Below, one piece after another: positions 1 through 64,000 of a stretch of 64,000 nucleotides of DNA. Under the pieces are notes generated by a model. It saw nothing but the letters and a program-made list of their open reading frames with translations, was not told the origin of the DNA and made no database searches. The position numbers and the translations under genes are program-made. The stretch is taken from the NCBI GenBank assembly GCA_964450715.1, contig CAYVFC010000003.1, positions 5,407 through 69,406 of the forward strand, in the 5' to 3' direction. The first letter of the stretch is position 1. Every line of letters starts with the position of its first letter. The stretch is from an uncultured Sandaracinaceae bacterium (GTDB lineage: Bacteria; Myxococcota_A; Polyangia; Polyangiales; JAFGIB01).

Positions 1-1426
1 CGAACAAAATAGGGCTCGGGGGGTAGCGGGGCGGCGCCAGGTGAAAGAGCAGCGGCAACAGCGCGTTCATCTTCCGGTATTGTTCCGGCCGCTCGCCGGG
101 AACGCCCCAGAGCAGGTTGTAGTGCACCTGGATACCGTGCTCCGCGCACCATTTTAAGGCCTGTATGTTTTGCAGCGCGGTGGTCCCCTTGCCCATCAGC
201 TTCAACAGCTCCGTGTTGAAGCTCTCGACACCGAACTGCACGTACCGCGCGCCGCTCAGCGCCAGATCTCGGATCTGGCTCTTCGGCAGGGTGGCGCGCA
301 GCTCGCAGATGAAGGTGAAGTCGCAGTCGAGCCTGCGTAGCGGAGCCAGCGCGTCCCGCAAGACCGCCCGCGGCAGCAGGGTGTCGGTCAGGTGAAAACG
401 CAGAACGCCGTGGGTCGAGGCGAGGGTCTCGATGTCCCGCTGGATCCTGCCCGCCGACTTGACCCGGTGGGGCAGGTTCTCCCGGTCCAGCCCGCAAAAC
501 CGGCAGCGGCGCTCGCCCTTTCCCCACCAGCAGCCGCGCGAGGTCTCGTAGGCCACTCCCTCCAGCGGTATCTCGCACCCCTGCTGGCGGCAGCGCCGCG
601 CTTGATCGAAGTAGTCCGAGTAGTCCGGAAGATAATGCTCGTCCAGCGAAAGGCTCGGCGTCCGGCCCGGGTTGACCACCAGCTGGCCGTCGCGCCGCCA
701 GCAGACGCCGGGTAAGGCGGAGAGGACCCGCCGCTCGCCGCGGCTCAAAGCGCGCACCAGCGGGGTGATCAGCTCCTCGCCCTCCCCCTGAACGCAGCAG
801 TCGATCCAGGGAAAGGCCATCATGTAGCCGGGGCCCATCTCGCCCGAGAAGCAGAATCCGCCGAAGACGACCGGCTTGTGCGGGTATAGCTCCTTGATGC
901 GCCGGGCCAGGGCCAGTGACGGTAGGGTCTGGTGAAAGGTGCAGGTGAAACCGATCAGATCGCTCTGGCGGACCTCGTCGCGAAGCGCCTCTTGCTCGAT
1001 GAAACGCGGCACCAGGCTATCGCGGATATGCAACAGCTCGTCCGCAAAGGCTTCGTCCAGCGGCTCCCCCGGCCGAGCGTTTCCGGCCCCGTACCCGCTC
1101 GGGGCCGCCGGGAAACCGTGACGGGTGCGGTCGAGCAGAAGCTCGAGCCTCTCGCGGTCGCTTTCGGGATGCGAATCGTCCCCGGGAAACAGGCCGCGGT
1201 TGAAGAGCCATTCGGAGACGAACCGCAGGGCGATGTCGTGGACGATGCGCTCGTAGGTCTGTACGCCCAGCAGCGAGGCGAAACGCAGGTTGGCGTGAGA
1301 GGCGGCCGCCGCCACGCCGTCGGCCCTCAGCCGCGCCCCGAGCAGCCCCAGCGGTAGCGAGGGAATGCCGATCGGCGCCCAGGGCATGGTGACGAGCAGC
1401 ACGGTTCCGGCGGGGGTCTGGTCCAA
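1..1426 (-). CDS. B12-binding-domain radical SAM enzyme, TIGR03975-like RiPP-maturation family (partial; C-terminus lies beyond the left edge)
   Basis: My own minus-strand translation reads ...VLLVTMPWAPIGIPSLPLGLLGARL..., then YETSRGCWWGKGERRCRFCGL (approx 487-530) and QFGVESFNTELLKLMGKG. The frame stays open to base 1, so it is absent from the ORF track. Start is TTG 1426 (GAGG 9-12 nt upstream) or GTG 1402. Confidence 0.8.
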   Translation of the reverse strand, partial: MDQTPAGTVLLVTMPWAPIGIPSLPLGLLGARLRADGVAAAASHANLRFASLLGVQTYERIVHDIALRFVSEWLFNRGLFPGDDSHPESDRERLELLLDRTRHGFPAAPSGYGAGNARPGEPLDEAFADELLHIRDSLVPRFIEQEALRDEVRQSDLIGFTCTFHQTLPSLALARRIKELYPHKPVVFGGFCFSGEMGPGYMMAFPWIDCCVQGEGEELITPLVRALSRGERRVLSALPGVCWRRDGQLVVNPGRTPSLSLDEHYLPDYSDYFDQARRCRQQGCEIPLEGVAYETSRGCWWGKGERRCRFCGLDRENLPHRVKSAGRIQRDIETLASTHGVLRFHLTDTLLPRAVLRDALAPLRRLDCDFTFICELRATLPKSQIRDLALSGARYVQFGVESFNTELLKLMGKGTTALQNIQALKWCAEHGIQVHYNLLWGVPGERPEQYRKMNALLPLLFHLAPPRYPPSPILF

Positions 1427-1586
1427 CGATGCGCGCCTCGTGCAAGACGGATCCGAGCTTCCTCGGGCCATCCAAGGTACCACGCTGAAACCTTGCCTGG
1501 CCAGCGTCGCGACGGGGCCGGATCGGCGGCTCTATCCGCGATGGAAAGCGCTTGACCCGGCCTCGAAGGCGGATAGAAGTATTCAA

Positions 1587-3656
1587 ATGGGAGTCGGGGT
1601 AGAGAGCTCGCACGTACTGATCTCCTCCAGGTGCGTAAACGATTGCGTTTTCTGCGCGGTAGCGAACAAGCGCAAGGCCGGGGCGCTGTCCAGCCGGGAG
1701 GAGATCCTCCGCTTCATGGAGAAGATGGCCACCGCCGGCGTCAAGCACCTGACCTTCTCCGGTGCCGGCGAGCCGACCCTGGACGAGCACTTCGAGGAAT
1801 ACCTCGACTATGCCCACCAGCTCGGCTTCCCGCGTATCCAGCTCTTCACCAACGGTCATGCCGTGTCGAGCGACAAGGTGCAGGCCTGGAAGCGATCCGG
1901 GCTCGGCCAGGTGCTGCTCTCGCTGCACGGCCTAGAGGGGGGGCACGACCGCAACGTGCGCCGACGAGGGTCGTTTAGAGAAGCCCTGCAGGCGCTCGAT
2001 ACCTTTCTGGCTGAGGGGCTTCAGGTCAACGTCAATACCTGCCTGACCCGCCATAACCTCGACGAGATAGCCGAGTTGTGCGCGCTGGTGGATCGCTATC
2101 CGGTCGGCCGCCACATGCTCTCCTTTCCCGAATGGCACGGCGCCTGTCTGGCCAATCCGGATCAGCTGCTCTGCTACCAGCAGGTCCGCGATCTCTGCGA
2201 TGACGTCGACTTTTTCGCCTTCCCCAGGGTCGTCTTCGACAACACGCCCTTCTGCATCGCCCGGCACCGGACACGCGAGCTCAGCGGGCTGGGACCGGTG
2301 GTGCTGCTGGACGCCGATCAGGAGCACACGCTGGCCATGGGCGGCGGCAATCGCTATCTCGGGGCGTGCGAGAGCCATTCCTGTCCGGTCAGGCACCTAT
2401 GCTGCGGATTCGACCCGGACTACATCGCGCATCACGGCTGGGGAGCCCTTCCCGGGCTGATCGAGGGCTTCTTCCGGCAGTTCGACTTCACCAGGTTGCG
2501 GCCGCTTCGTTCGGGCAGCGGCGGTTTCCGCCTCTCGCCGCCCCTGCGCCGCCCGGCGGCGCACCGAGCCGAGCCGGATACGGCCGGCGAGGGCATCTTC
2601 AACCTGATCCTCAAGCCGACCGCGCGCTGCAACGGTTCCTGCGCCTACTGCGCGGCCCGGAGCGAGGCCATTGCGTACGCAGATCTCTCGGTCGAGGATG
2701 CCGTCCGCATTTGCGGGACGGTGGCGCGAACCCTTCGCGAGCGGGGCGAGCGCCATCTGCAAATCGTCTGGCACGGCGGCGAGCCGCTTCTCATGGGTCG
2801 CGAGTTCTTCCGCGAGGTCTTGAGCTGGTGCCGGCAGAACCTCGAGGCGCCCCGCGTGAGCCACTCGGTGCAGTCCAACCTGCTTCTGCTGGACGAGCAG
2901 TGGATCGATCTCTTCGGTGCCTTCGACGTGCGGCTGAGCACCTCGGTCGAGCCGGTGGTCGAGGGGCTCCGGGTCTTCGCGGACGGTAGCGAGCAATTTC
3001 CGGGATGGTTCGAACGTTTCCGGCTGGCGATGCGCCGCGGCGTGAAGGTGGGGATCGTATATACCGTCACCGCTCACCACCTCGGACGGGAAGAGAAGAT
3101 CTACAACTACTTTCGCAACCTGCTCGCCACCTACCGCTCTTGCAGCGGGGTCCGTTTCAGTCCCATATACGCCGCCGGTCGCGCGGGCGACGGGAGCCGT
3201 GCGCGTTTGCTGCTCACCGACCAGCAGTACGCCACCTTTCTCCAGGCGATGCAGGCTCTTTGGAGCACGGCCGGGCGGCGGCTCGCTTTCGAGCCCTTCC
3301 GCAGCCTCGCCGGAGGCCACCGCAACTCGTGCGCGCTTTTACCCGACTGCAGCCGCCACTTCCTGGCCGTGGACGGCCAGGGCCGCGTCTCGCCCTGCGG
3401 GCGTTTTCTCGATTCCCGCGTCTTCATCGGTTCTATATACGGCGACGATTTCCCGACCCTGCAACAGAAGGCCCGCGAGCTGCTTTTCGAGCAGCGGGCG
3501 CTCCGCCTGGCCGAGACCGAGTGCCAGGGCTGCCCCGACCTGGAGCGCTGCCACGGCGGCTGTCCCTACCTGGCCTACCTGTACGGCGGCGACGCCAGCC
3601 GCAAGGAGCCCTTCTGCGCCGCCCACCGCGCGCTGTTCGCCTCAACCCGCGGGTAG
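1587..3656 (+). CDS. Tandem radical SAM / radical SAM-SPASM fusion protein (two catalytic cores in one polypeptide)
   Basis: ORF 1365..3656. Its 5' part overlaps the divergent gene, so ATG 1587 (MGVGVESSHVLISSRCVNDCVFC) is preferred. Core 1 has CVNDCVFC (1632-1655) plus FSGAGEPTL. Core 2 has CNGSCAYC (2628-2651) plus WHGGEPLL. The C-terminal SPASM block is CQGCPDLERCHGGCPY...C. Confidence 0.85.
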   Translation: MGVGVESSHVLISSRCVNDCVFCAVANKRKAGALSSREEILRFMEKMATAGVKHLTFSGAGEPTLDEHFEEYLDYAHQLGFPRIQLFTNGHAVSSDKVQAWKRSGLGQVLLSLHGLEGGHDRNVRRRGSFREALQALDTFLAEGLQVNVNTCLTRHNLDEIAELCALVDRYPVGRHMLSFPEWHGACLANPDQLLCYQQVRDLCDDVDFFAFPRVVFDNTPFCIARHRTRELSGLGPVVLLDADQEHTLAMGGGNRYLGACESHSCPVRHLCCGFDPDYIAHHGWGALPGLIEGFFRQFDFTRLRPLRSGSGGFRLSPPLRRPAAHRAEPDTAGEGIFNLILKPTARCNGSCAYCAARSEAIAYADLSVEDAVRICGTVARTLRERGERHLQIVWHGGEPLLMGREFFREVLSWCRQNLEAPRVSHSVQSNLLLLDEQWIDLFGAFDVRLSTSVEPVVEGLRVFADGSEQFPGWFERFRLAMRRGVKVGIVYTVTAHHLGREEKIYNYFRNLLATYRSCSGVRFSPIYAAGRAGDGSRARLLLTDQQYATFLQAMQALWSTAGRRLAFEPFRSLAGGHRNSCALLPDCSRHFLAVDGQGRVSPCGRFLDSRVFIGSIYGDDFPTLQQKARELLFEQRALRLAETECQGCPDLERCHGGCPYLAYLYGGDASRKEPFCAAHRALFASTRG

Positions 3657-3684
3657 GGGGGATACCATTTAGTTACCCCCCTAC
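3653..3684 (+). terminator. GC hairpin overlapping the stop codon (terminator-like, no U tract)
   Basis: Perfect 9-bp stem GTAGGGGGG (3653-3661) / CCCCCCTAC (3676-3684) with a 14-nt loop. The TAG stop at 3654-3656 sits inside the stem. Confidence 0.3.
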
Positions 3685-3757
3685 GCGAAAGACGACGGGA
3701 AGGGTTTTTACGAACCGCCTCTGGTCACCTACCGACGCGCCCGACTACCGGGCGCTG

Positions 3758-3990
3758 GCCGGGCGCGGGAAGGCCGGGACCGGGCGGCGGGGGCTACCCG
3801 CGTGCCAACCCGCCCAGCTATCGAGACCCCGGGTTGGCGCGCGGGTCGAGCGCGGGTTGCGTCCGGCAGGGCAAGAGCCCGTACGGCCGGACAATGCAAC
3901 CCGCGCGACCCCCGCCGCCCGGTGTCGGCCTTCCCGCGCCCCACCCGAAACGCAGGCAGCCCTGAAGCGATCAAGTCGTGCTAGTGTAGA
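3758..3990. repeat. Dispersed GC-rich intergenic repeat (family C), copy 1
   Basis: 3758-3816 aligns by eye at roughly 80 percent with 51411-51470. 3843-3869 is identical (27/27) to 60434-60460, and 3886-3897 is identical (12/12) to 60477-60488. The internal hairpin is CGCGGGTTGCGTCCGGC...GCCGGACaatGCAACCCGCG. Confidence 0.6.
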
Positions 3991-4907
3991 TGCCAACCCG
4001 GCGCCGCTTCGCGCCCTGCCACCAGACCATGCCCGACTTCCCCGAACAGATGATCGTGAGCGCGCCGCCGGGATTTCTCGAGCAGCAGAGCTGCCGGGTG
4101 ATCCTCCGGCTCTTCGACGTCGGGCGCGACGCCGCCCGGCTGGCCGCGCCCTACGGAAAGCGCATCAGCCACATCGACATGAACGGCAAGACGCTGGCCT
4201 CATTACCGAGGCTGGATCTGCTGGCCGAGCACCGCATCCGGCTCTTTGTCTCGGACGCGGATATTCCCTTGATACACCGGATCTCGAAGACCGCGGTCAA
4301 GCACCGTCTGGTGCTCTTCGTCCAACCGGACGCTGGCGCCGCCCGACGGATCAACCTGCTGAGCGAGTTCGATATCCCCATGCACATCGATCCCGGCGCG
4401 GGCCCCGCGGCGGAGGGCGTGCTGCCGCAACTTCTCGAGTACTACCTGCATAACCCGCTGCTGAACGCCTCCATCGCGCCCTTCAACGCGCTGATGAAGC
4501 ACGAGATCGAGGGCAAGGGGTATACCCTCTGGGATACGGAGTACGAAAAACCGGGTCGATACCTCTACCTATCCGCCGAGGGCGACATCTCGCTTTCGGG
4601 CAGGTTTCACCGAGCCGGGGTCGTCTTCGGCACCAGGTACGAGGCTTGGGAGCAAATCGCTGGGTCCGAGGCCTACCGGCGCCTGCTCGGATACCGGGAC
4701 GCCATGTTTGAGAAGGGCGAGCCCTGTGCCTTCTGCGCCGGGTTCCGCTTCTGTCAGGGCTATCTGAAAGCGGTGGACGCGGACGCCGACTGCGAGCAGT
4801 GGCAGCGGGTGTTCGAGGGAATCGGGCTGGCGGTCGACCAGGCCAGGGGTATCATAAGGGACGGTTATGGAAAGCGTGCCCGGGACCGCGGCGGGAAACC
4901 GGCGTAA
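3990..4907 (+). CDS. Hypothetical protein with only a SPASM/twitch-like Cys block (no radical-SAM CX3CX2C motif)
   Basis: ORF track, 305 aa. The only Cys cluster is C-terminal, CAFCAGFRFCQGY...DC (CX2CX5C). It overlaps the next rSAM gene by 41 nt. Start is uncertain: ATG 3990 lies at the end of the repeat, and ATG 4029 is the alternative. Confidence 0.6.
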   Translation: MPTRRRFAPCHQTMPDFPEQMIVSAPPGFLEQQSCRVILRLFDVGRDAARLAAPYGKRISHIDMNGKTLASLPRLDLLAEHRIRLFVSDADIPLIHRISKTAVKHRLVLFVQPDAGAARRINLLSEFDIPMHIDPGAGPAAEGVLPQLLEYYLHNPLLNASIAPFNALMKHEIEGKGYTLWDTEYEKPGRYLYLSAEGDISLSGRFHRAGVVFGTRYEAWEQIAGSEAYRRLLGYRDAMFEKGEPCAFCAGFRFCQGYLKAVDADADCEQWQRVFEGIGLAVDQARGIIRDGYGKRARDRGGKPA

Positions 4908-5976
4908 GAAGGTATTCTCCGTCGTCTTCATGCCCACGCTGGCGTGCAATTGCACCTGCGACTATTGCTTCCAGAACAAGACCGGCAGCCTGATGTCGGA
5001 CCAGGTGCTGCACCGCTTTCTCGACGGCCTGCTCGATCATTGCGGGCAGGAGAACATCCGTGGCCTCAAGATCTTCTGGCAGGGCGGCGACGTGCTTACC
5101 CTCTCCCCGGAACGGGCGAGCCAGATCCTGGGGATCTTCCGCGAGCGGACGGCCGGTAGCGGCGTTGCGGTCAACCACTATATACAGACCAACCTGCTGG
5201 GCTATCACCAAGGCTGGAAGCAGATCCTGCGGGACAACTTCAAGGACAGGATCAGCTCCTCGCTGGACTATCCCAACCTGTATCGCCAGGGGCCCGGCAT
5301 CGGCGTCGACGACTACTTCGACCGTTGGTTGCGGAAAAAGGAGCAGATCGAGAGCGACGGCTTTGGCGTGAGCGTGATCGCCCTGCCCAACGCGGAGACC
5401 CTCGAGCGAGGCGCCCAGGCCTTCTACGACTTCTACGGCAACACCGCCGGCATCAAGAGCCTGCAGGTCAACTTCCCCTTTCCCGGCATCGGCTCCGACT
5501 ACCCGCGAGAGCTGTCGCTCGAGAAGTACTCGGACTTCCTGCTAGATCTGTACCGGATCTGGAAAGAGGACGGCAGGCGTATCCACCTCAGGCCCTTTGT
5601 GACCATCGAGCGCAAGAAGAAGACGCCGGCGGCCAGCACCTTCTGTATCTGGTCCTATTGTTGCGCCGACGACATCCTGGCCGTGGCGCCGGCAGGAGAG
5701 GTGGCGCAGTGCGACTGCTGGATCCTCTGCCTGAACGAGTTCCAGTACGGTACGGTGCGCGACGCGAGCATGCGGCAGCTGCTGGACTCGCCCAACCGAC
5801 GGATCTTCTACCAGCGGGCGGAGAAGCTGGCGCTTCAGAGCGAGTGCGGGCAGTGCGTCTACTGGAGGCTCTGTCACGGCGGATGTCCGATCCGGGCCTA
5901 TCGCTTCTCGGGCGAGTTCTTTGCCAAGGACCATTTTTGCGCCGTTTACCGGGCCTTGTTTGACACGATTAGCTGA
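4867..5976 (+). CDS. Radical SAM/SPASM domain maturase
   Basis: ORF track, 369 aa. Motifs are FMPTLACNCTCDYC (CX3CX2C), FWQGGDVLTL, and the C-terminal SPASM block CGQCVYWRLCHGGCP...FC. Confidence 0.85.
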   Translation: MESVPGTAAGNRRKKVFSVVFMPTLACNCTCDYCFQNKTGSLMSDQVLHRFLDGLLDHCGQENIRGLKIFWQGGDVLTLSPERASQILGIFRERTAGSGVAVNHYIQTNLLGYHQGWKQILRDNFKDRISSSLDYPNLYRQGPGIGVDDYFDRWLRKKEQIESDGFGVSVIALPNAETLERGAQAFYDFYGNTAGIKSLQVNFPFPGIGSDYPRELSLEKYSDFLLDLYRIWKEDGRRIHLRPFVTIERKKKTPAASTFCIWSYCCADDILAVAPAGEVAQCDCWILCLNEFQYGTVRDASMRQLLDSPNRRIFYQRAEKLALQSECGQCVYWRLCHGGCPIRAYRFSGEFFAKDHFCAVYRALFDTIS

Positions 5977-6011: not shown

Positions 6012-6869
6012 ATGGCTAAGAAGAGGGAACCTGAAGACGGGCGGAAGAACACCGTCGCGCGGGAGCCGGATCCCCGCGAAGCGCGCTGGCTCGATCGACG
6101 CAGCTTCCTGATGAGCGCGGGCAAGTACTCGGCTGCCGCGGCCGGTCTGCTCGCCGGCGCGCCGACCCTTTTCAGCGGCTGTTTTTTCGGCAAGAGCGAC
6201 GACGACCAGAGCGATGCCAAGCCGATCGAGCGCTACCAGCAGGAGGCGGTGCCGGCGATCATGGACGCGGACACCGGAGCCTCGCTGTCCGATGGCGAGG
6301 ATGCGGTCTACGAAATCTCCATCGAGCAAGCCGGCGACTACATGTTGACCGTCTCGTCCGAGAGCACCTTGCCGGAAGCAGACGCGGTACGGGCCTTTTT
6401 GCTCGAGGAAGACGGCGACGTGATCTGGTGGGAAGATATAAGGGCAGGTGCTACCTATACCGAAGGGTGGGAGGGCCTGCACTCGGGCATTTATTACCTG
6501 GTCATCGAGAGCCAGACCGACTCGGTCAAGGTCGTCTTCACCGTGACCGAGCAGAGCGGTAGCGGCGAGGGCGGCACGGGCGGTTCGGGCGAAGGGGGCA
6601 CGGGCGGCACCGGCGAGGGCGGTAGCGGCGAGGGAGGCACCGGCGAAGGCGGTAGCGGCGAGGGAGGTACCGGCGAAGGGGGCACGGGCGAGGGCGGCAG
6701 CGGCGAGTGGGACGACTACTCGGACTGGGTCGACAGCGCCTGGACCAACAACACCTGGTCCGACAGCTCGGGCTGGAAGGATGCGGGCAGCGGCACCTGG
6801 GTGGCCTACTCGGATTCCTGGTACGCCGGCGAGTGGGACGACGGCTGGCTGAACTACGGCTACTACTGA
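6012..6869 (+). CDS. Tat-signal lipoprotein with a PPC-like beta-sandwich, a (GEGG[ST]G)n linker and a Trp/Tyr/Asp-rich C-terminal tail
   Basis: ORF track, 285 aa, with AGAGG upstream. The twin-arginine motif is DRRSFLMSAG, followed by an h-region and lipobox LFSGC. The PPC-like pattern is GDYMLTVSS...GIYYLVIES. The last 54 residues contain 9 W, 6 Y and 9 D. Confidence 0.75.
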   Translation: MAKKREPEDGRKNTVAREPDPREARWLDRRSFLMSAGKYSAAAAGLLAGAPTLFSGCFFGKSDDDQSDAKPIERYQQEAVPAIMDADTGASLSDGEDAVYEISIEQAGDYMLTVSSESTLPEADAVRAFLLEEDGDVIWWEDIRAGATYTEGWEGLHSGIYYLVIESQTDSVKVVFTVTEQSGSGEGGTGGSGEGGTGGTGEGGSGEGGTGEGGSGEGGTGEGGTGEGGSGEWDDYSDWVDSAWTNNTWSDSSGWKDAGSGTWVAYSDSWYAGEWDDGWLNYGYY

Positions 6870-6878
6870 TCCCCCCTT

Positions 6879-6961
6879 GTCATTTCGACCGACCCTGTCA
6901 TTTCGACCGAAGGGAGAAATCTCTTTTTCGATAGAGATCTCTCACGTACGTTCGAGATGAC
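6879..6961. repeat. Palindromic dispersed repeat, family A (GTCATTTCGACCGAAGGGAGAAATCTC ... GAGATCTCTC..CG.TCGAGATGAC), full copy with a duplicated left end
   Basis: The left arm occurs twice (6879-, 6897-) and the right arm ends at 6961. The same element is found at 8562, 10714, 34679 (half copy) and 63805 (half copy). Confidence 0.85.
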
Positions 6962-8486
6962 GCGCGCCACGGGCGTGCTGGCCCTGTTCGGCGCCATCAT
7001 CGCCATGACGGCGCTGAACCGCGAGGTCGTCTCCATTTTACCTTTCGGGATCGAGGGCGACGGCCCGGGTTACATTTCCTATGCTGCCGCCCTCGGCGTG
7101 CACGGGTTCCGGGCGGTCGACCCCATGTGGCAGCCGGGCTACCCCTTTGCCCTGTGGCTGCTATCGCCGCTGTTCGCGGAGCCGTTCCGGGCCGGCGTGA
7201 TGATCTCCCTGGTCGCCGGCCTGGGCTTTTTGGCTCTCTGCTACCTGCTGGTGGCCGAGCGCTTCTCCGCCCCGCTCGGCCTGCTCTCGGTCGCCCTCAT
7301 CGCCAGCAGCGATCTGTTCGTCGTAAGCGCCTGCAGCGTCAACTCGGACATGACCTACGGCTGCCTGGCGCTGGGCAGCATCGCAGTGCTGTTTCGCGAG
7401 CGGATGCCCGCGGCCCGGCGCCTGGCCGTCGCCGGACTGCTGGCCGGCGCGGCCTATATGGTTCGACATCAGGCGCTTATGCTGCCGCTGCTCATGGCAC
7501 TCGTCTTGCCGACGCTGCCGCGCGGCGAGCGCCTGAAGGCCGGCCTATGGGGCGCGCTCGCCTTTTCGCTGGCTGCCCTTCCCGTGCTCGTCGCCTACGC
7601 TCTGCGTTTCGGCAATCCCCTCTACAATGAGCACTACCTCAACCTGGCCGGCGCGGCCTACTTCGACGGCAATCTGAACCTGTTCTTTCACGGGGGGCAC
7701 GCCGCGGCCTACGATTCGTGGGGCCAGGTACTGTCCGAGCGGCCGATGGCCATCGCGCGCTTTCTGGCGCTCAATTTTTGGCGGAGCTTCGCCGCGCTTC
7801 TTACCGAAACCCACGCGATACCCTTGCTCTGGGTCCCAGCCGTGGTGGGGATGGTGCGGATCAGGAGCGTCGACAGGCTCGTCCTGCTCGCCGCGCTGCT
7901 GCTCTGCCTTCTGTCCATGTCGACGGTTGCCACGCGGCCGCGCTACCTGCTGCTGGCGCTGCCGTTTTTCCTGCCCTTTGCGGTCGACGGCGCTGTTTGG
8001 GTTTATGGACGGGCGCGGGCGGCGATCGGGTGGAAGCTTCACGACGCCGTTCCGGCAGGTATCCTGCTGGCCGTTTTCGCGCTGCTGGCGGCGCGCGCCG
8101 GCCGGGAGGTGCTACGGGAAGAGGATCCGGTCTTCCGCGCGGCCGGGCTTTTACTCCGCGAGGCGACCGATCCGGGTGACCGAGCGCCGTTTCTCTCCAT
8201 CTACCCCTTTCACGTGGGGTACTACGCCGAAAGGCGCGGCGTGTTCCTGCTCTCGCCCCGTTTCAACCGGCCGCCCTATTCGCTCGAGGCCGCGAACCGG
8301 GCGCTGCGCGCGACCATCGAGAGAAACGGCGCCGGATACCTACTCTATTACAGGTTTCCCGGCTTCAACCGGCCCGCTTTTCCCCACCTCGCCTCGGCGG
8401 GCAGAGCCCCGCCCTTCCTCGAGCCGCTGGCCGAGCGATCCGATCCGCTGCTGGTCCTCTATCGCTACCGGCCGGAGCTTCGCTGA
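6957..8486 (+). CDS. Polytopic membrane protein, GT-C fold glycosyltransferase (PMT_2/ArnT-like, GT39/83-type)
   Basis: ORF track, 509 aa, with many hydrophobic segments. The first-loop pattern GDGPGYISYAAAL...QPGYPFALWLL resembles the D-x-x-x-Y...hPPl motif of ArnT/PMT_2 enzymes. The ATG lies inside the right end of the family A repeat. Confidence 0.55.
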   Translation: MTRATGVLALFGAIIAMTALNREVVSILPFGIEGDGPGYISYAAALGVHGFRAVDPMWQPGYPFALWLLSPLFAEPFRAGVMISLVAGLGFLALCYLLVAERFSAPLGLLSVALIASSDLFVVSACSVNSDMTYGCLALGSIAVLFRERMPAARRLAVAGLLAGAAYMVRHQALMLPLLMALVLPTLPRGERLKAGLWGALAFSLAALPVLVAYALRFGNPLYNEHYLNLAGAAYFDGNLNLFFHGGHAAAYDSWGQVLSERPMAIARFLALNFWRSFAALLTETHAIPLLWVPAVVGMVRIRSVDRLVLLAALLLCLLSMSTVATRPRYLLLALPFFLPFAVDGAVWVYGRARAAIGWKLHDAVPAGILLAVFALLAARAGREVLREEDPVFRAAGLLLREATDPGDRAPFLSIYPFHVGYYAERRGVFLLSPRFNRPPYSLEAANRALRATIERNGAGYLLYYRFPGFNRPAFPHLASAGRAPPFLEPLAERSDPLLVLYRYRPELR

Positions 8487-8561
8487 GCTTCTACGCGCTT
8501 GACAGCACTATTCCCGTCAATTCGTCCGCTCCCGCTGCCATTTTGCCCGCCCCCCCCTTTT

Positions 8562-8650
8562 GTCATTTCGACCGAAGGGAGAAATCTCGTTTGTGTAACA
8601 GAGATCTCTCACCTCCGTTCGAGATGACAACGATATTCGTTCGAGATGAC
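8562..8650. repeat. Palindromic dispersed repeat, family A, full copy
   Basis: Left arm 8562-8588, right arm 8601-8628, plus an extra partial right end at 8636-8650. Confidence 0.85.
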
Positions 8651-8656
8651 ACTTCG

Positions 8657-9547
8657 CTACGGGCACTCGGCGTGCATCTCGTCGTCGCAGGTCGGCTCGG
8701 GCTCGCCGCTGAAGTCGCAGGCATAGGTCTCGCCCTCGGAGCTGAAGGTCGCTTCGGCTGCGACGACTTTCCCGTTGGAAGTGTGCTCGCAAGGGCACGA
8801 GACCCCGATGGCTATGTACCCGAATCCCGAGCTCTTCCCGCCTTCCATATGGTAGAGGATGCACTCGTTTTCGGCGAACCAGGACGGAAACGTGGCGTCG
8901 TTCGCCTCACAGATCGTCTCGCTGGAGGAGCCGCACAGATCACCGGGATCGTCGGCGCAGGCCACGAACTGGTTCGCGCCGCAGTGCTCGGTGCCGTAGC
9001 AGTCGGTGAAGCAGCACCAGCCGTCCGTGCACTCGAGGTAATCATAGGTCGGTGCGCTTCCGCCCGAGCCGCCGTCGCCGCCGCTACCGCCGGTTCCGGC
9101 GGTTCCGGCCGTTCCCGCGGTACCGCCGGTTCCGGCGGTAGAGCCGCCCTCGCCGCCCTCGCTGCCGCCGGTTCCGGCAGCCGATCCGCCCTCGCCGCTG
9201 GTTCCGCCGCCTCCGCCGGACTCGCCGCCGCTTCCGCCGCTTCCGCCGGACTCGCCGCCGCTTCCGCCGCTTCCGCCGGACTCGCCGCCGGTGCCCGCGG
9301 CGGTTCCGCCGGAACCGCCTGTGCCGGATCCGGAACCGCTGCTGTCGACCACGCACTTGTCGGACAGGCAGACCAGCCCCGTGTCGCAGGTTCCACCCGA
9401 CGTACAGTCACAGCCCTCGGACCCAACATCGCAGTCGTTCGCCTCTTCCTCGCAGGCCGTCACCGCAACCGTGCCCAGCATCACCGCTCCCAGTAAAACG
9501 GCTCGCAAAATCGCGGATTCAACGCTCGTTCCCCTCGTCCTCATCAT
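8657..9547 (-). CDS. Secreted lipoprotein with a Gly/Ser-rich linker and Cys-rich N- and C-terminal modules
   Basis: ORF 8657..9691. The internal start MMRTRG at 9547 is preceded by GGGAGG. The signal and lipobox read LGTVAVTAC. The linker is (GGESGGSGGS)n. The C-terminal domain has many Cys. Confidence 0.7.
   Translation of the reverse strand: MMRTRGTSVESAILRAVLLGAVMLGTVAVTACEEEANDCDVGSEGCDCTSGGTCDTGLVCLSDKCVVDSSGSGSGTGGSGGTAAGTGGESGGSGGSGGESGGSGGSGGESGGGGGTSGEGGSAAGTGGSEGGEGGSTAGTGGTAGTAGTAGTGGSGGDGGSGGSAPTYDYLECTDGWCCFTDCYGTEHCGANQFVACADDPGDLCGSSSETICEANDATFPSWFAENECILYHMEGGKSSGFGYIAIGVSCPCEHTSNGKVVAAEATFSSEGETYACDFSGEPEPTCDDEMHAECP
9213..9292. repeat. Perfect 30-bp tandem repeat (about 2.7 units) inside the lipoprotein linker
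   Basis: CCGCCGGACTCGCCGCCGCTTCCGCCGCTT is repeated head to tail. It encodes SGGSGGSGGE units on the minus strand. Confidence 0.8.
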
Positions 9548-9721
9548 CCGACCTCCCAGTCGACCTCTGCCGGGCCAGGGCCATTGCGGCGCTGCGAAAA
9601 ACCCTGCAGAGAAGCCAAGAACCTTCCCGGATACCCGGAATCCCTTCCAGCCCATTTTTATCAGGTTTCGACCGACCCTTCTACAGCTCACCGGTTGTCA
9701 GCCGGTCGCCGGGGCACCAGA

Positions 9722-10678: not shown

Positions 10679-10713
10679 ACGTCGGCGCCGAAGCCGTCGG
10701 TTATCGCGTTTCT

Positions 10714-10803
10714 GTCATTTCGACCGAAGGGAGAAATCTCTTCCTTTGATGATGGAGATCTCTCGCTCCGCTCGAGATGACACTTCACCTGGCTCGAGAT
10801 GAC
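10714..10803. repeat. Palindromic dispersed repeat, family A, full copy
   Basis: Left arm 10714-10740, right arm 10755-10781, plus an extra partial right end at 10791-10803. It sits between convergent genes. Confidence 0.85.
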
Positions 10804-10833: not shown

Positions 10834-12474
10834 CTACGAACCCAGGATGGTATCCAGCGAGCTCTTTTTCGGTTGGGGCTCGTCGTCATCGGCGCCCAGC
10901 ACCGAGTCCAGGATCCGTTCCTTGCCGGCCGGCCGGGCGGGTTTCGCTGGAACGGGCGCCTTCTGCCGGCGGCTTACCCGGCGTTTCGGCGCCGCGGCCG
11001 GCTTCGAGGCCGAATCGACCGCATCGCTCTTCGCGCGCGCGCGGGCGGCCGTTGTGCCCCGGTCATCCGTCGCGCTCGGCCGATCGGCCCGGTCGGCGAC
11101 CGCGGCGTCCGCTCGCCTCGCGGCCAGCGCGTTTTTATTTGCGATATCCGTCGCGCTCGATTGCGACCCCGGCGGCTCGTACGGGTGAAGCTCGTTCATC
11201 GCGTCGGTCGATCCGTTCTCGTCCGTGTCCCCGCCGCCGCCCGCGCCCCCGGCGAAAAAGCCCACCGCTACCAGCGCGCCGCCCAGCAGTATCGCGGCCA
11301 GACCCAGCAGCGGCGCGCGACTGGATATCGTCCGTCGCATGGGCACGTTGACCGGCTGCAGGGTCGACGACTCCGCCGCCGCCTTGGCCTGCGGTCCGGC
11401 GGCCGAGGTCACGGCAGCCGCGTCGGCAGCCGCGTCGGTCCGGGCTTCGGGCGCGCCGCCAGGTACCGCGTAGGTCTCCTCCGCCGGGTCTCCTCCGCCG
11501 GCCGGCGAGTCGCCGGGCGGGGAAGCGCCCGGGGAGCCCGGCCCGGCTTCGTCTTTGATCGGCGAATCCAGCCCCCCGACCGGATGGTCGTTGCTCGCTT
11601 CCCAGTCCAGTTGTTGATCGGGAAAGAAGGGCGCGAGCGCCTTGGCCAGGCTGGCCACGTCCTGGTAGCGCGTCTCGAGTGAGCTCGATATCGCCCGCTT
11701 GACCACGGCGTCGAGCTCGGCCGGAAGCTCCTCGACGTGCTCGGTCATGGGGGTCGGGTTGCCCTCGTGAATCTTGATCGCCAGCTCCAGGATGCTCCCT
11801 TCGTAGGGCATCTGCCCGGTGAGCACCTCGTAGAGGATGACGCCCAGCGCGTAGACGTCGGTCTGGACGGTGACGTTCCTGGCATCCTGTAGCTGCTCGG
11901 GGGACATGTAAAGGAGCGTGCCCATGGTGCTCCCCTCCTGGGTCAGGGTGCCCTGCCCCCTACCCTCGGTCACCTTGGCGATGCCGAAATCGAGCACCTT
12001 GGGGGTCCAGCCCTCGGGCGTCTCGGCCAGGAAGATGTTCGCCGGCTTGAGATCGCGGTGCACCACGCCCTTCTGGTGGGCCGCGTAAACGCCCCGCAAT
12101 ACCGGTCCCATGACGCGGCCCGTTTGCTCCAGCGGTAGGCGCCCCTCCCCCAGGTAGTCGCTCAGCGACTGACCTTCGAGAAACTCCATGACGATGTACG
12201 GGGCGCCCGTCTCGGTGCTGATGTCGATGGGCCTGACCACGTTGGGATGCTCGATGCGCGCTGCGACCTGGGCCTCGGTCAGGAAGCGTTTGACCGCCAC
12301 CTCGTGGCTGGCCAGATGCGGCATCAACCACTTGATGGCCACGCGGTTGCCGAGCACGGTATGGGTGGCCGCATAGACCGCGCCCATCGCTCCCTCGCCG
12401 ATCTTCCTGTCGATGCGATACTTGCCGTTGTCGACCAGGTCGCCGACCTGGGGGAGCTGTGGTTCGCTACTCAC
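10834..12474 (-). CDS. Ser/Thr protein kinase with a C-terminal TM segment and a Pro/Ala-rich tail
   Basis: ORF track, 546 aa. Motifs are GEGAMGAVY...VAIK, VVHRDLKPANIFL, DFGIAKV and YMSPEQ. Confidence 0.9.
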   Translation of the reverse strand: MSSEPQLPQVGDLVDNGKYRIDRKIGEGAMGAVYAATHTVLGNRVAIKWLMPHLASHEVAVKRFLTEAQVAARIEHPNVVRPIDISTETGAPYIVMEFLEGQSLSDYLGEGRLPLEQTGRVMGPVLRGVYAAHQKGVVHRDLKPANIFLAETPEGWTPKVLDFGIAKVTEGRGQGTLTQEGSTMGTLLYMSPEQLQDARNVTVQTDVYALGVILYEVLTGQMPYEGSILELAIKIHEGNPTPMTEHVEELPAELDAVVKRAISSSLETRYQDVASLAKALAPFFPDQQLDWEASNDHPVGGLDSPIKDEAGPGSPGASPPGDSPAGGGDPAEETYAVPGGAPEARTDAAADAAAVTSAAGPQAKAAAESSTLQPVNVPMRRTISSRAPLLGLAAILLGGALVAVGFFAGGAGGGGDTDENGSTDAMNELHPYEPPGSQSSATDIANKNALAARRADAAVADRADRPSATDDRGTTAARARAKSDAVDSASKPAAAPKRRVSRRQKAPVPAKPARPAGKERILDSVLGADDDEPQPKKSSLDTILGS

Positions 12475-13654: not shown

Positions 13655-15319
13655 TCAAGGAACATACTTCGCCGTCCAGATGTTGTTACCGTCCGTTTGA
13701 TCGATGTGTCCGGTGACCAGGACGTTGTTCTCCGAGTCGGCGGCGATGGCGTAGGCGGTGTCGTGACCGTCGGCGTCGCCGTTGCGGGTCCGCGTCCAGA
13801 GCACGACGCCGTCCGAGCTGTACTTGCGGACCCAGGCGTCAGCTCCCTGGGCGGCGTCGAGCTCGCTGCCGGCGACCAGCACGTTGCCCCGGGCATCGAC
13901 CGCTACGCCGTATCCCCGGTCGTCGCCGTCCACGCCGTTGTTGTTGTAGGTCTCGCTCCAGAGCAGCGATCCGTCGGCGCCGTCGAGCTTGCCGATCCAG
14001 ATATCCGCGCCCTGGCCCGAGACGGTCTGGTAACCGGCCACCAGCACGTCATCCTCTCCATCGATAGCGATGGCCCGGCCCTCGTCGGGCAGATCGCCGT
14101 TGCCGGAGAAGGTGGCGGTCCACAGCTCGGCCCCGTCCGGATCGTACTTGCGAACCCAGATGTCCGTACCCTGGCCCGTGACGGTCTGGTAACCGGCCAC
14201 CAGCACGTTGTCCGCGGAATCGACGGCAATGCCGTAACCGACATCGTCGCCATCCGCGCTGCCGTTGTGGGTCCGGGTCCACTGCTCGCCCGAGCCGCTG
14301 CTCCCATATTTGCCGATCCAGATGTCGCCGCCCTCGCCCCCGAGCCCGACGGTACCGGTGACCAGCACGTTACCCGCCGAGTCCAGCGCCACGCCGTAGC
14401 CGTAGTCAAAGCCGGCGCTGGAGTCGGGCTGCTGGCTCCACGGCGCTGCTCTGCCCTCGGCGCCGTACTGCAAAAGCCAGATATCCGTATAGCTGTCGGC
14501 GGTGAGCACGTAGCCCACGACCACGGCGTCGCCCGCGGAATCGACGGCAACGCCGCAACCCCGGTCATCGCCGCTCGACTCGCCGTTATAGTAGCGGTCG
14601 TCCGTCCACAGGGCCGTTCCCGCCGGGTCGTACTTGACCGTCCAGATATCCCTGCCCGACGCGCTACCGTCGCCGCAGGAGGTTCCGGTCACCAGCAGGT
14701 TGTCCGAGGCGTCCGCGGCAACGCCGAAACCGCGGCTGTCGCACTCGGCGGCGCTGTGCAGCCGCTCCCACTCGCGCGTGCCGACCGCGCAGCCGCCGCC
14801 GCCGTCGCACCGGCCGGTCGAGCTCTCGCACGAGGTCTCGCTACGCTGGTAGTTGCTCTGGCATACACCCTGCCCGTCGCAGGCATCGGGCAGATCGCAC
14901 TCGGTCTGGCTCGGGTCGCCGCAGGCCGTTCCTTCGGCTACGGCGCAGCTTCCCGCCACCTCGTCGCAGGTGTCGTTGCACTCGTCGCCGCCCTGGCACG
15001 GATCGCCCGCGTGGGTGCAGTTTCCCTCGGCGTCGCAGCTATCCACGCCGTTGCAGAAGATCCCGTCGTCGCAGCTCTGCCCCTCGTCCAGCCAGAAGCA
15101 GCCGTCGCAGCAAGCGTCGCCTTCCGAGCAGGTGCATCGACCGCCGTCTTGCGGCGAGCCGCCGTCGTTCTCGCCGGCACTGCCGCCGTCATCCGTATCG
15201 CGGAACACGTACTTGTCCGTGTCGATGATCGTCGAGCACGAGGTGAGCAAAAAAAGCGCGGGCAAGAGTATCGCCGCGTTCGGGGCAATTCGTTTTAGAT
15301 CTCTCGTCGCCATGTTCAT
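13655..15319 (-). CDS. Lipoprotein with an N-terminal Cys-rich module and SBBP-type beta-propeller repeats
   Basis: ORF 13655..15418, with start MNMATRDLKR at 15319. The lipobox is LFLLTSC. The repeated pattern is D.(A/S)GNVLV(T/A)G......DIW..KY...G...W. Confidence 0.75.
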   Translation of the reverse strand: MNMATRDLKRIAPNAAILLPALFLLTSCSTIIDTDKYVFRDTDDGGSAGENDGGSPQDGGRCTCSEGDACCDGCFWLDEGQSCDDGIFCNGVDSCDAEGNCTHAGDPCQGGDECNDTCDEVAGSCAVAEGTACGDPSQTECDLPDACDGQGVCQSNYQRSETSCESSTGRCDGGGGCAVGTREWERLHSAAECDSRGFGVAADASDNLLVTGTSCGDGSASGRDIWTVKYDPAGTALWTDDRYYNGESSGDDRGCGVAVDSAGDAVVVGYVLTADSYTDIWLLQYGAEGRAAPWSQQPDSSAGFDYGYGVALDSAGNVLVTGTVGLGGEGGDIWIGKYGSSGSGEQWTRTHNGSADGDDVGYGIAVDSADNVLVAGYQTVTGQGTDIWVRKYDPDGAELWTATFSGNGDLPDEGRAIAIDGEDDVLVAGYQTVSGQGADIWIGKLDGADGSLLWSETYNNNGVDGDDRGYGVAVDARGNVLVAGSELDAAQGADAWVRKYSSDGVVLWTRTRNGDADGHDTAYAIAADSENNVLVTGHIDQTDGNNIWTAKYVP

Positions 15320-15458
15320 CGTCGAGCCTCGCTCAACCGTAAGATGCCATGATATCGCTTCCGAACGGTATGCTGTAGCCGAGGCGCGGGGGAAGCCCGC
15401 GGCGCGAGTGGAGACCACGGGGCATCAATAGCCGCGCCTCATGCCGAAAAGACGCATC

Positions 15459-34678: not shown

Positions 34679-34705
34679 GAGATCTCTCCCTCCGGTCGAA
34701 ATGAC
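34679..34705. repeat. Family A repeat, solo right-arm half copy
   Basis: GAGATCTCTCCCTCCGGTCGAAATGAC. Confidence 0.7.
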
Positions 34706-48789: not shown

Positions 48790-49168
48790 GGATACCTCCT
48801 ACAAATGAAAAACCTTTCCAGAACCGATGTCCGCGGCTCGTTCGGGGTCCTGCGACCCTCGGCTGCCGGGGACCATTTCGACGCCCTCGGAGCCCGGACA
48901 AGGGCGCTAGCCTACCACTTCGCGGCGGCGAGAAAAGCATCCCCGTTTGGGGGTAATTTGGCCGGCCGGATCGCGTGGTGGGCGTCGCGTTTTCCCCGGC
49001 GCGGCGTCTTCGGGTCGTACGTAGAGGTGATCCGGGTGTTTTGGATTTCCACATACGGATCCGAATCTTGAGCTTGGATAGGACGACTCATAGTGCTAAA
49101 AAGGAACAGTAGGTCCACTAGTGTCAGGTTCGGGTTGCTGGCAAATCAACGATAGGGAGCGAAAGACG

Positions 49169-63804: not shown

Positions 63805-63830
63805 GTCATCTCGACCGAAGGGAGAGATCT
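63805..63830. repeat. Family A repeat, solo left-arm half copy
   Basis: GTCATCTCGACCGAAGGGAGAGATCT. Confidence 0.7.
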
Positions 63831-64000
63831 TCTTCCGGTCGTGCTGGCTGCAGTCGCTCCTGTCGTAGAATCTGGGCCCAGTTGAGCATGGCCGTGCCCG
63901 CGTGCTGGACGAAGTCGTTCCTCACGGAGAGATCAGCCGGGTATCCGGGAACCCCTCCCAGGGCCGCCCGAGGATTTAGCAGCAGGTGCTCGGGCCCGGG
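63806..64000 (-). CDS. Unknown protein, C-terminal 64 codons only (gene continues beyond the right edge)
   Basis: My own minus-strand translation reads [64 protein letters not shown]. The last 8 or so codons and the TGA stop lie inside the family A repeat. Confidence 0.4.

Follow-up and report, generated by a model that had tools for sequence, protein, structure and literature searches.

A 64,000-nucleotide stretch of contig CAYVFC010000003.1 from an uncultured Sandaracinaceae bacterium (hereafter, the window; 66% GC) encodes a 285-residue protein (6012-6869, + strand) comprising a twin-arginine leader with a lipobox, a PPC-like beta-sandwich, a Gly-rich linker and a C-terminal tail rich in W/Y-x-D/N triplets. 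The analysis presented here indicates that this tail is very probably the target of a radical S-adenosylmethionine (rSAM) system encoded alongside it. Judged from sequence, the two would make up a computationally well-supported substrate-enzyme pair. The substrate motif, rather than enzyme phylogeny, points to three-residue cyclophane formation as the chemistry involved, a proposal whose chances are put at about even. Taken together, the reading that is somewhat favoured is that the tail is modified at multiple sites by the rSAM system in the cytoplasm, yielding cyclophanes, and that the protein is subsequently exported by the twin-arginine translocation (Tat) pathway and anchored to lipid. 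The protein would then be the product of a maturation system, conserved and uncharacterised, whose target is a protein instead of a short peptide.

The aromatic tail and its neighbouring maturase gene

The tail (residues 232-285, EWDDYSDWVDSAWTNNTWSDSSGWKDAGSGTWVAYSDSWYAGEWDDGWLNYGYY; 6705-6866, + strand), which ends in ...GWLNYGYY, is the proposed core, i.e., modified, region of the protein in light of its motif statistics, conservation, rarity and low structural confidence. A sequence-only reading of the window had earlier described a 54-residue tail containing nine Trp, six Tyr and nine aromatic-x-Asp/Asn triplets. The translation indeed matches exactly, with the tail containing nine Trp, six Tyr, nine Asp and three Asn residues, as well as nine [WYF]-x-[DN] triplets (WDD, YSD, WVD, WTN, WSD, WKD, YSD, WDD and WLN). 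When the composition of the tail was shuffled, 3.25 ± 1.38 such triplets were obtained, with approximately 1 in 10,000 shuffles attaining the nine observed. Likewise, W-x-[DN] alone occurs seven times, as opposed to the 2.0 occurrences expected from shuffles. Asp or Asn is found at the +2 position relative to seven of the nine Trp residues, as compared to between zero and three at every other offset. Because the G+C content at third codon positions is 0.96 in frame, and because the tail peptide is also encoded, and conserved, in an organism of 44% GC (locus L004), the reading frame of the tail can be considered genuine. In relatives, replacement of Tyr by His retains an aromatic-S-D triplet, and the Ser residues that flank the tail triplets are conserved. 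AlphaFold2 (AF2) offered no confident fold for the tail (predicted local distance difference test (pLDDT) values of 31-42). C-terminal sorting signals, namely, MYXO-CTERM, PEP-CTERM and the C-terminal domain of the type IX secretion system, were also considered and rejected upon inspection, given that the tail includes neither a transmembrane helix nor a basic stretch at its end.

Searches for relatives revealed the tail to be rare. When 5.8 billion proteins were searched by word index with the full-length sequence as query, only four relatives were returned, sharing 35-58% identity, while an exhaustive search of 1.84 billion representatives with a profile of the tail alone returned four proteins in total, one of which (P0008) was new. 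One more family member was found through gene context in locus L006. The tail shares 81-85% identity with its counterparts in three relatives and 59% identity with that of a fourth, whose tail ends early. With the PPC-like domain sharing 32-60% identity with those of the relatives, the tail stands out as the most strongly conserved segment of the protein. A tail that is conserved yet predicted to be disordered is what would be expected of a linear motif or of a substrate for modification, unlike a folded binding domain. Moreover, since the tail profile matches only four proteins among the 1.84 billion representatives, the tail does not correspond to a generic binding module. Scans of 185,579 species representatives and of metagenome contigs with profiles of the substrate and enzyme alignments yielded nothing but a weak match in the 1-kb L005; the system is absent from, or went undetected in, those species representatives.

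Directly upstream of the substrate gene lies a gene encoding a 369-residue rSAM/SPASM maturase (4867-5976, + strand), the start of which overlaps the preceding gene, encoding an accessory protein, by 41 nucleotides. Further upstream, a fused double rSAM protein and a divergently oriented B12-binding rSAM protein are encoded. An orthologous rSAM/SPASM gene was found directly upstream in five of five tail-bearing members with readable upstream DNA, these being the window, the contig of P0002, L003, L004 and L006; two further contigs were uninformative in this respect, one of them having no upstream sequence. The additional gene contexts were obtained by exact-protein look-up. The L003 orthologue of the enzyme shares 69% identity and is accompanied by the accessory protein. 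In L004 (44% GC; 52% identical orthologue) and L006 (55% identical orthologue), the accessory and double rSAM proteins are both encoded as well, with L006 adding two TIGR03975 methyltransferases. The order of the genes encoding the accessory and double rSAM proteins differs in L007 and L012-L015. The earlier reading had suggested that homologous tails be sought and their neighbours recorded; in this manner, tails commonly occurring apart from rSAM genes were not seen, with the four matches obtained from the 1.84 billion representatives and with all five contexts including the enzyme.

Two of these loci present features of their own. The rSAM/SPASM gene of L004 contains a single in-frame TAA (1948-1950) shortly past the CX3CX2C motif, which could be the result of an error in sequencing, mark the gene as a pseudogene or point to recoding. 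L006 includes a pair of U32 'peptidase' genes (1276-3061), encoding a 317-residue UbiU-like protein (E 7e-13) and a 281-residue partner. UbiU/UbiV-type proteins are O2-independent aromatic hydroxylases. By analogy, the pair hints that Trp or Tyr hydroxylation may occur in some versions of the system.

The proposed maturation enzymes and their distant relatives

To what extent the link between enzyme and motif reaches beyond the close family can be seen from the 701 homologues of the 369-residue enzyme detected at E ≤ 1e-10. The partners of enzymes sharing 40-45% identity with that of the window are otherwise dissimilar, having in common W-x-[D/N] repeats and a twin-arginine-type leader. In the case of P0014 (45% identity; L007 and L008), a 242-residue protein comes after the enzyme and precedes a B12-rSAM and a double rSAM protein. 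In the L007 partner, the leader is of the twin-arginine type, the middle domain is unrelated, and the tail ends in GDWCDYGDWTDYSDWTDDYSVYGRWQDWDNYYVWGAWSNWSL, with six of the eight Trp residues of the protein having Asp or Asn at +2. P0024 (44%; L010, from a deltaproteobacterial metagenome-assembled genome (MAG)) is followed by a 233-residue protein containing both a twin-arginine pair and a lipobox and ending in RWNDSSVEWSNAPSWSDWYDSPWSDYSDYSDYSDYWGNWMESW, again with Asp or Asn at +2 of six of eight Trp residues. P0036 (42%; L012-L017, from marine MAGs, 14 contigs) precedes a 219-residue protein, likewise with a twin-arginine pair and a lipobox, that ends in GWDNAWNDAWNDAWSNAGWQDHWSDWYNAPWGNWMQSW; downstream of this protein, a B12-rSAM, a double rSAM and an accessory protein are encoded.

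P0066 and P0061 (40%; L009, from Thiorhodococcus, and L011) belong to minimal, Chromatiales-type clusters encoding a peptide of approximately 102 residues, an accessory protein homologue and the enzyme (L009, 6276-9185; L011, 6285-9149), with a SnoaL_3 protein preceding the peptide. The peptides contain a twin-arginine leader and an A-x-A signal-peptidase site just before (GGGGGW[VI]N[GR]R)n repeats, with Asp or Asn at +2 of four of four Trp residues in L009 and of five of five in L011. Asp and Asn are close to absent at other offsets from Trp in the partners from L007, L010, L009 and L011. In each of these two three-gene clusters, the W-x-N peptide is the sole candidate substrate. The L009 peptide matched TIGR04260 (GrrA/OscA1) with an E value of 6.4e-5 and a score of 23.5 bits, i.e., under the cut-off of 31, while the window protein gave no match to this model. 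The L009 and L011 clusters likely represent an undescribed sister family of the Gly-rich-repeat cyclophane RiPPs (peptides that are synthesized on the ribosome and modified after translation). As these clusters hold just the 369-type enzyme and the accessory protein, they suggest that these two proteins would suffice for W-x-N sites, with the double rSAM and B12-dependent enzymes going together with more complex tails.

The W-x-[D/N] unit and the leader thus co-vary with the enzyme, a pattern expected of a multi-site substrate. The proposal of the sequence-only reading that the tail is a multi-site rSAM substrate is, as such, supported by the rarity of the tail, by the synteny seen in all five readable contexts and by the W-x-[D/N] repeats of the distant partners, with the nature of the chemistry being drawn from the motif. 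Trp/Asp-rich segments can, nonetheless, bind sugars or cations and, with tail modification being deduced, one could imagine the tail being left unmodified and serving in binding or adhesion as an aromatic/acidic module, with the rSAM enzymes acting elsewhere. This is very unlikely, given that adjacency to the enzyme is maintained in every informative context despite changes in gene order and that the tail family was never seen apart from rSAM enzymes in the tail-profile search. Nor do the gaps within the clusters offer an alternative small open reading frame (ORF) as substrate, just as the minimal clusters present no candidate other than the W-x-N peptide. In the window, no plausible hidden precursor ORF was found in the gap at 3657-3989, a gap that spans only 21 nucleotides in L006.

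The 369-residue enzyme contains the CX3CX2C motif as CNCTCDYC, together with the full SPASM set, seven Cys residues being invariant in the family alignment, and scored 47.9 against TIGR04085 (SPASM; cut-off 27). The top full-length models were DynA (107.7 bits; cut-off 450) and the anaerobic sulfatase-maturating enzyme, anSME (TIGR03942, 96.8; cut-off 349.45), followed by DarE (77.6; 650), DarW (71.1; 650), AmcB (70.9; 425), GrrM (56; 310), FxsB (44.4; 370), YhhB (40; 445) and XyeB (34.9; 450). The best models for the rSAM/SPASM units of the locus thus include DynA, DarE, DarW, AmcB, GrrM, YhhB, XyeB and FxsB, all being cyclophane or other cross-link maturases. Weak similarity to the QhpD model TIGR03906 was also noted (E 1e-6 to 1e-11). 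These scores place the enzymes in an uncurated clade.

The double rSAM protein (1587-3656, + strand; 689 residues from the called start, with the ORF being open from 1365) matches Pfam Radical_SAM in two stretches. In the numbering of the 763-residue ORF, these correspond to a NirJ/MoaA-like rSAM domain (residues ~85-245) and an rSAM/SPASM unit (residues ~415-760). The C-terminal half of the protein is a paralogue of the 369-residue enzyme (26% identity; E 6e-30) and best matches DynA (1.5e-42) and anSME (7.9e-41), in both cases scoring far under the cut-off. The double rSAM protein is conserved in L004, L006, L007 and L012-L015. The accessory protein (4029-4907, + strand; 292 residues, or 305 when read from 3990) gave no Pfam or NCBIfam match and no match in a PDB profile search, while its AF2 model is poor (pLDDT 49.5). 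Based on a weak hhalign match to the rSAM/SPASM family that is collinear with the SPASM half (E 0.08) and on the retention of a CX2CX5C...C pattern, its C-terminal half seems to resemble a degenerate SPASM domain. In tblastn searches, the accessory protein was seen to adjoin the rSAM enzyme in L003, L004, L006, L009 and L011; in L012, it was recognized by eye from position 9297 onward, at which tblastn gave no match.

The sequence-only reading had placed three SPASM-type genes upstream of the substrate. Two of these indeed encode true rSAM/SPASM units, one being fused behind an extra rSAM domain, whereas the third corresponds to the degenerate SPASM-like accessory protein. Beyond these three, a fourth rSAM gene is found at the left edge of the window, where the first 475 codons of the divergently oriented B12-binding rSAM gene are present (1-1426, - strand), the remainder running off the edge. 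The full gene, encoding 639 residues, could be read from a Logan contig (L001, 4641-6560, - strand) that is identical to the window over an overlap of 6922 nucleotides. The complete protein scored 503.1 bits against TIGR03975, the 'RiPP maturation radical SAM C-methyltransferase' model, well above the cut-off of 281.85.

These assignments bear on the nature of the reaction. The tail could be the substrate of some other chemistry, namely, DarE-type ether formation, DynA-type C-N bond formation, anSME-like oxidation or hydroxylation at the Cβ of Asp, Asn or Ser, C-methylation alone or generation of a Trp-derived cofactor. The enzymes are equidistant from anSME and DynA/DarW, the locus encodes a C-methyltransferase, the L006 U32 pair is a possible O2-independent aromatic hydroxylase, and conserved Ser residues flank the triplets, all of which are compatible with this idea. 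Still, the fixed placement of Asp or Asn at +2 after an aromatic residue in all partners corresponds to the geometry of a three-residue cyclophane (PMC11499958). Furthermore, the daropeptide Ω-x-Ω motif is nearly absent from the tail, with only the terminal YGY fitting, while the C/S-x-P/A-x-R sulfatase motif is found neither in the tail nor elsewhere in the 285-residue protein. Another chemistry is, therefore, considered unlikely, if still the most serious of the alternatives to cyclophane formation.

The leader and the proposed course of maturation and export

The leader of the substrate protein comprises a twin-arginine-type signal and a lipobox (residues 25-57, RWLDRRSFLMSAGKYSAAAAGLLAGAPTLFSGC; 6084-6182, + strand), delineated on the basis of conservation and a shared leader motif. 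It includes WLDRRSFLM (D-R-R-S-F-L-M), a hydrophobic stretch (AAAAGLLAGAP) and the lipobox LFSGC, with the Cys at position 57. The [ST]-R-R-x-F-L-K-like motif, hydrophobic h-region and L-x-[GA]-C lipobox of Tat lipoproteins can all be recognized in this region. The exported lipoprotein described in the sequence-only reading can thus be specified further, the signal being of the twin-arginine type with a lipobox, as assigned by motif. The two Arg residues and Cys57 are invariant within the close family, and the signal region is 67-88% identical among family members, as compared to 32-60% for the folded domain, which is far above what is usual for signal peptides. In addition, R-[RK]-x-x-[LFI]-x-x-x-[GA]-x-[YFW]-S recurs as a motif in every distant substrate class sampled, and an extra G-[KRN]-[YFW]-S motif in the signal region is shared with the leaders of all of the distant partners. 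The signal region may, as such, double as a Tat signal and a leader for the maturase.

The leader is followed by a PPC/collagen-binding-domain-like beta-sandwich (residues 71-182; 6222-6557, + strand). The presence of a PPC-like domain, as earlier proposed, is borne out by the AF2 model, in which pLDDT values are 80-95 across the region, extending into the confident range (>90), and by Foldseek, for which the top matches were 1nqj (the ColG collagen-binding domain; template modeling (TM) score 0.71-0.73) and 5sv5 (a PPC domain; TM score 0.70), these scores being target-normalised (E 2e-5 to 7e-5). No Pfam match to the sequence of this domain was obtained. Between the domain and the tail lies a Gly-rich (GEGG[ST])n spacer (6558-6704, + strand), predicted by AF2 to be disordered and encoded by a 15-nucleotide tandem repeat. 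Here, the linker at 6550-6704 noted in the earlier reading was recovered as Gly-rich, whereas the six-residue unit GEGG[ST]G was not: the unit is the five-residue GEGG[ST] (15 nucleotides), in an array spanning about 6556-6707. Tandem Repeats Finder reported 7.1 copies of period 15, as well as periods of 30 and 45. Ser and Thr are regularly spaced in the linker, which is found only in the window protein and its closest relative, and is absent from P0003-P0005, P0008 and the L006 protein. A second long Gly-rich spacer, (GGSGGE/GTGG)n, which resembles this linker, is present in a 344-residue Cys-rich secreted protein encoded nearby (8657-9691, - strand). Spacers of this kind appear to be typical of the genome at large and not specific to the rSAM system.

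We infer both the modification of the tail and the manner in which the protein would be matured and exported. The preprotein would be made in the cytoplasm, where its disordered C-terminal tail would be engaged by the 369-residue rSAM/SPASM enzyme, probably with the assistance of the accessory protein and possibly with recognition of the conserved twin-arginine leader. At each W/Y/H-x-[D/N] site, a 5'-deoxyadenosyl radical would take a hydrogen from the Cβ of the Asp or Asn at +2, and the resulting Cβ radical would add to the aromatic ring at position 0. A three-residue cyclophane would thus be formed with a loss of 2 Da per site, at up to approximately nine sites. Further cross-links and C-methyl groups would then be added by the B12-rSAM C-methyltransferase and by that rSAM/SPASM unit in the double enzyme which is a paralogue of the 369-residue enzyme. 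The modified, folded protein would be exported via Tat and lipidated at Cys57. Tat tolerates folded and modified cargo. The outcome would be a rigid, protease-resistant, aromatic and acidic tail displayed on a flexible, Gly-rich tether.

A number of points weigh against this reading. All three rSAM/SPASM-type proteins score under the cut-off of every curated cyclophane-synthase model, the rSAM/SPASM units score about equally against anSME, and the solved structure closest to the 369-residue enzyme is that of anSME (4K36-39; E 4e-15). Because of these low scores and the equal proximity of anSME, enzyme phylogeny alone does not predict C-C cross-linking. The gene context was sampled for seven of the 701 enzyme homologues, and the call of disorder for the tail by AF2 derives from a shallow alignment of five sequences. 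Curated Tat hidden Markov models gave only marginal, non-significant matches to the leader (E 0.27 and 0.014), such that the assignment to Tat is motif-based. Asp at the third position of a cyclophane was not found in a literature search, the primary triceptide papers being outside its reach. No conserved protease, exporter or transporter was found in the clusters examined, and the characterised triceptides are all short peptides released by proteolysis (PMC12912966).

The last of these points raises the prospect that the protein is a classical RiPP precursor with an oversized leader, the lipoprotein portion serving as a carrier for a tail that is cross-linked, cleaved and released as a free peptide. 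The flexibility and variability of the linker would suit such release, as would the small L009 and L011 relatives, which resemble ordinary precursors with an A-x-A site just before the repeats. Yet, in addition to the clusters lacking a conserved protease or exporter, both the Cys of the lipobox and the folded domain have been retained in the close family, and a signal of the Tat type implies that the protein is exported in its entirety. Release of the tail is hence deemed improbable.

Immediately behind the substrate gene lies a gene encoding a 509-residue membrane GT-C glycosyltransferase of the PMT_2 family (6957-8486, + strand; PF13231, 2.8e-8). The N-terminal part of a homologue occupies the same position in L003 (2227-2367; 66% identity over 47 residues), that is, in the closest clade only, while other genes are found at this position in L006 and L012. 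This placement, together with the regularly spaced Ser and Thr of the linker, could be taken to mean that the glycosyltransferase is the modifier of relevance, acting in the periplasm to O-glycosylate Ser and Thr of the linker or tail or to C-glycosylate Trp. The chances of this being so are slim indeed, given that L006 and L012-L015 lack the gene at that position and that most relatives lack the linker; it would at best be an add-on of a single clade. C-glycosylation of Trp was rejected as a candidate, since no W-x-x-W motif is present and since the glycosyltransferase is not conserved beyond the closest clade. In that clade, the enzyme may glycosylate the Ser/Thr-rich linker or the tail after export.

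Other features of the window were also noted. A palindromic intergenic element, with the core TCATTTCGACCGAAGGGAGAAATCTC, is present in five copies, as opposed to none in shuffles (6878-6950; 8543-8600; 10695-10760; 34679-34704, - strand; 63806-63831). Three perfect copies lie just past gene ends, including one directly after the stop codon of the tail-encoding ORF. When read in the wrong frames, the palindrome gives rise to spurious 'CHFDRREKS' ORF fragments; the element looks like a repetitive extragenic palindromic (REP)- or terminator-like repeat. Large secreted Cys-rich or repeat proteins are encoded at 13655-15418 (- strand) and 49121-51070 (+ strand), one with a DUF4215 Myxococcus-type Cys-rich repeat, and Ser/Thr kinases are encoded at 10834-12474 and 54149-56011. 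Along with the 66% GC, these genes would fit a source organism akin to the Myxococcota.

A broader, and more doubtful, proposal is that the protein is the founding example of a widespread, undescribed class in which the Tat leader serves as both maturase handle and export signal, with a poly-cyclophane tail being kept on an envelope lipoprotein. The product would then be a triceptide anchored to a protein, as opposed to a natural product that is secreted. This class would encompass hundreds of rSAM homologues, mainly from deltaproteobacterial/Myxococcota-like and Chromatiales metagenomes. A full-text search, with the primary triceptide papers lying outside of it and prior mention hence being possible, revealed no paper linking twin-arginine signals to three-residue cyclophanes. 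The aromatic C-terminus (...GWLNYGYY, ...WGNWMQSW) might, in analogy to darobactin, dynobactin and the xenorceptides, bind components of the envelope machinery (e.g., BamA) as a rigid ligand that resembles a beta-signal.

Formation of cyclophanes by radical-SAM enzymes has been described for short peptides that are secreted, among which are new leads for antibiotics active against Gram-negative bacteria. Were tail modification as described here to be borne out, the logic of cyclophane formation would extend to the tail of a protein that is full-size, exported by Tat and lipid-anchored, and RiPP natural products would be less sharply set apart from the post-translational modification of proteins. 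Asp and Asn at +2 of some nine tandem sites would join the known motif space, and a dual role for the Tat signal, as a maturase leader too, would be suggested. Such an outcome would also provide a testable substrate-enzyme pair, as well as a rule for mining the approximately 700 enzymes, namely, a Tat leader combined with C-terminal W-x-[D/N] repeats.

Comparison with known maturation systems

Of the known rSAM systems that modify polypeptides, anSME is the closest in terms of solved structure and its hidden Markov model matches the enzymes here about as well as do those of the cross-link maturases. Moreover, anSME acts on full-size, often exported proteins via abstraction of a Cβ hydrogen. 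Unlike sulfatases, the substrate here contains no sulfatase domain and no C/S-x-P/A-x-R motif, and the enzyme scored 96.8 against the anSME cut-off of 349.45, placing the pair outside the sulfatase-maturation family.

QhpD, by comparison, is a leader-dependent rSAM enzyme that introduces several Cys-to-Asp/Glu methylene links into a protein subunit while the latter is still in the cytoplasm, ahead of its translocation to the periplasm (PMC7876137). As in the maturation of QhpC, the γ-subunit of quinohemoprotein amine dehydrogenase, the enzyme shares an operon with its substrate, the substrate is a protein, and cross-linking at side-chain methylene carbons, of Asp or Glu in QhpC, is at stake (PMC7876137). 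QhpD, however, makes Cys-S-to-C thioethers, whereas the tail considered here contains no Cys, and export of QhpC follows leader cleavage and relies on an ABC transporter, rather than on Tat.

The daropeptide and dynobactin maturases (DarE, DarW, DynA and PasB) provide the best-scoring models for the enzymes and, like the system proposed here, are concerned with Trp-centred cross-linking and products with aromatic ends. Cyclophane and daropeptide maturases are, moreover, of common origin (PMC12912966). At the same time, the Ω1-X2-Ω3 motif is essentially absent from the tail, the scores reach no more than roughly one quarter of the cut-offs, and daropeptide and dynobactin products are free antibiotics of 7-10 residues. 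Neither the Ω1-X2-Ω3 substrate motif nor the DarE/DynA-family maturase that define such systems is thus found.

It is the triceptides, in which an rSAM/SPASM enzyme generates a bond between an aromatic carbon and a Cβ within Ω1-X2-X3 motifs (PMC11499958), that offer the closest parallel. As in the systems based on XyeB/XncB, GrrM/OscB, FxsB, YhhB, HtkB and MicB, repeated Ω1-X2-X3 motifs, in this case kept in all relatives, are found in a substrate encoded adjacent to an rSAM/SPASM gene, here specifying an enzyme with CX3CX2C and the full SPASM set. In both, there are several sites per substrate, and W-x-N is a validated motif among triceptides, with the WVN and WSK rings of xenorceptide A2, joined by Trp-C6-to-Cβ bonds, having been solved (bioRxiv 10.1101/2024.12.16.628070). 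Likewise, the partner peptide of a distant relative (L009) resembles GrrA/OscA1, although the window protein itself lies outside that precursor family (TIGR04260). The differences are equally clear. The enzymes here score far under the cut-offs of the curated cyclophane-synthase families, the third position is mostly occupied by Asp, at least nine motifs are present, and three further rSAM domains are conserved alongside. Rather than a short leader-core peptide from which a product is freed by proteolysis, the substrate is a 285-residue Tat-type lipoprotein with a folded domain, and no protease or exporter is encoded with it. In how it works, then, the system is like that of the triceptides, yet in several of the traits by which triceptides are recognized it stands apart from them.

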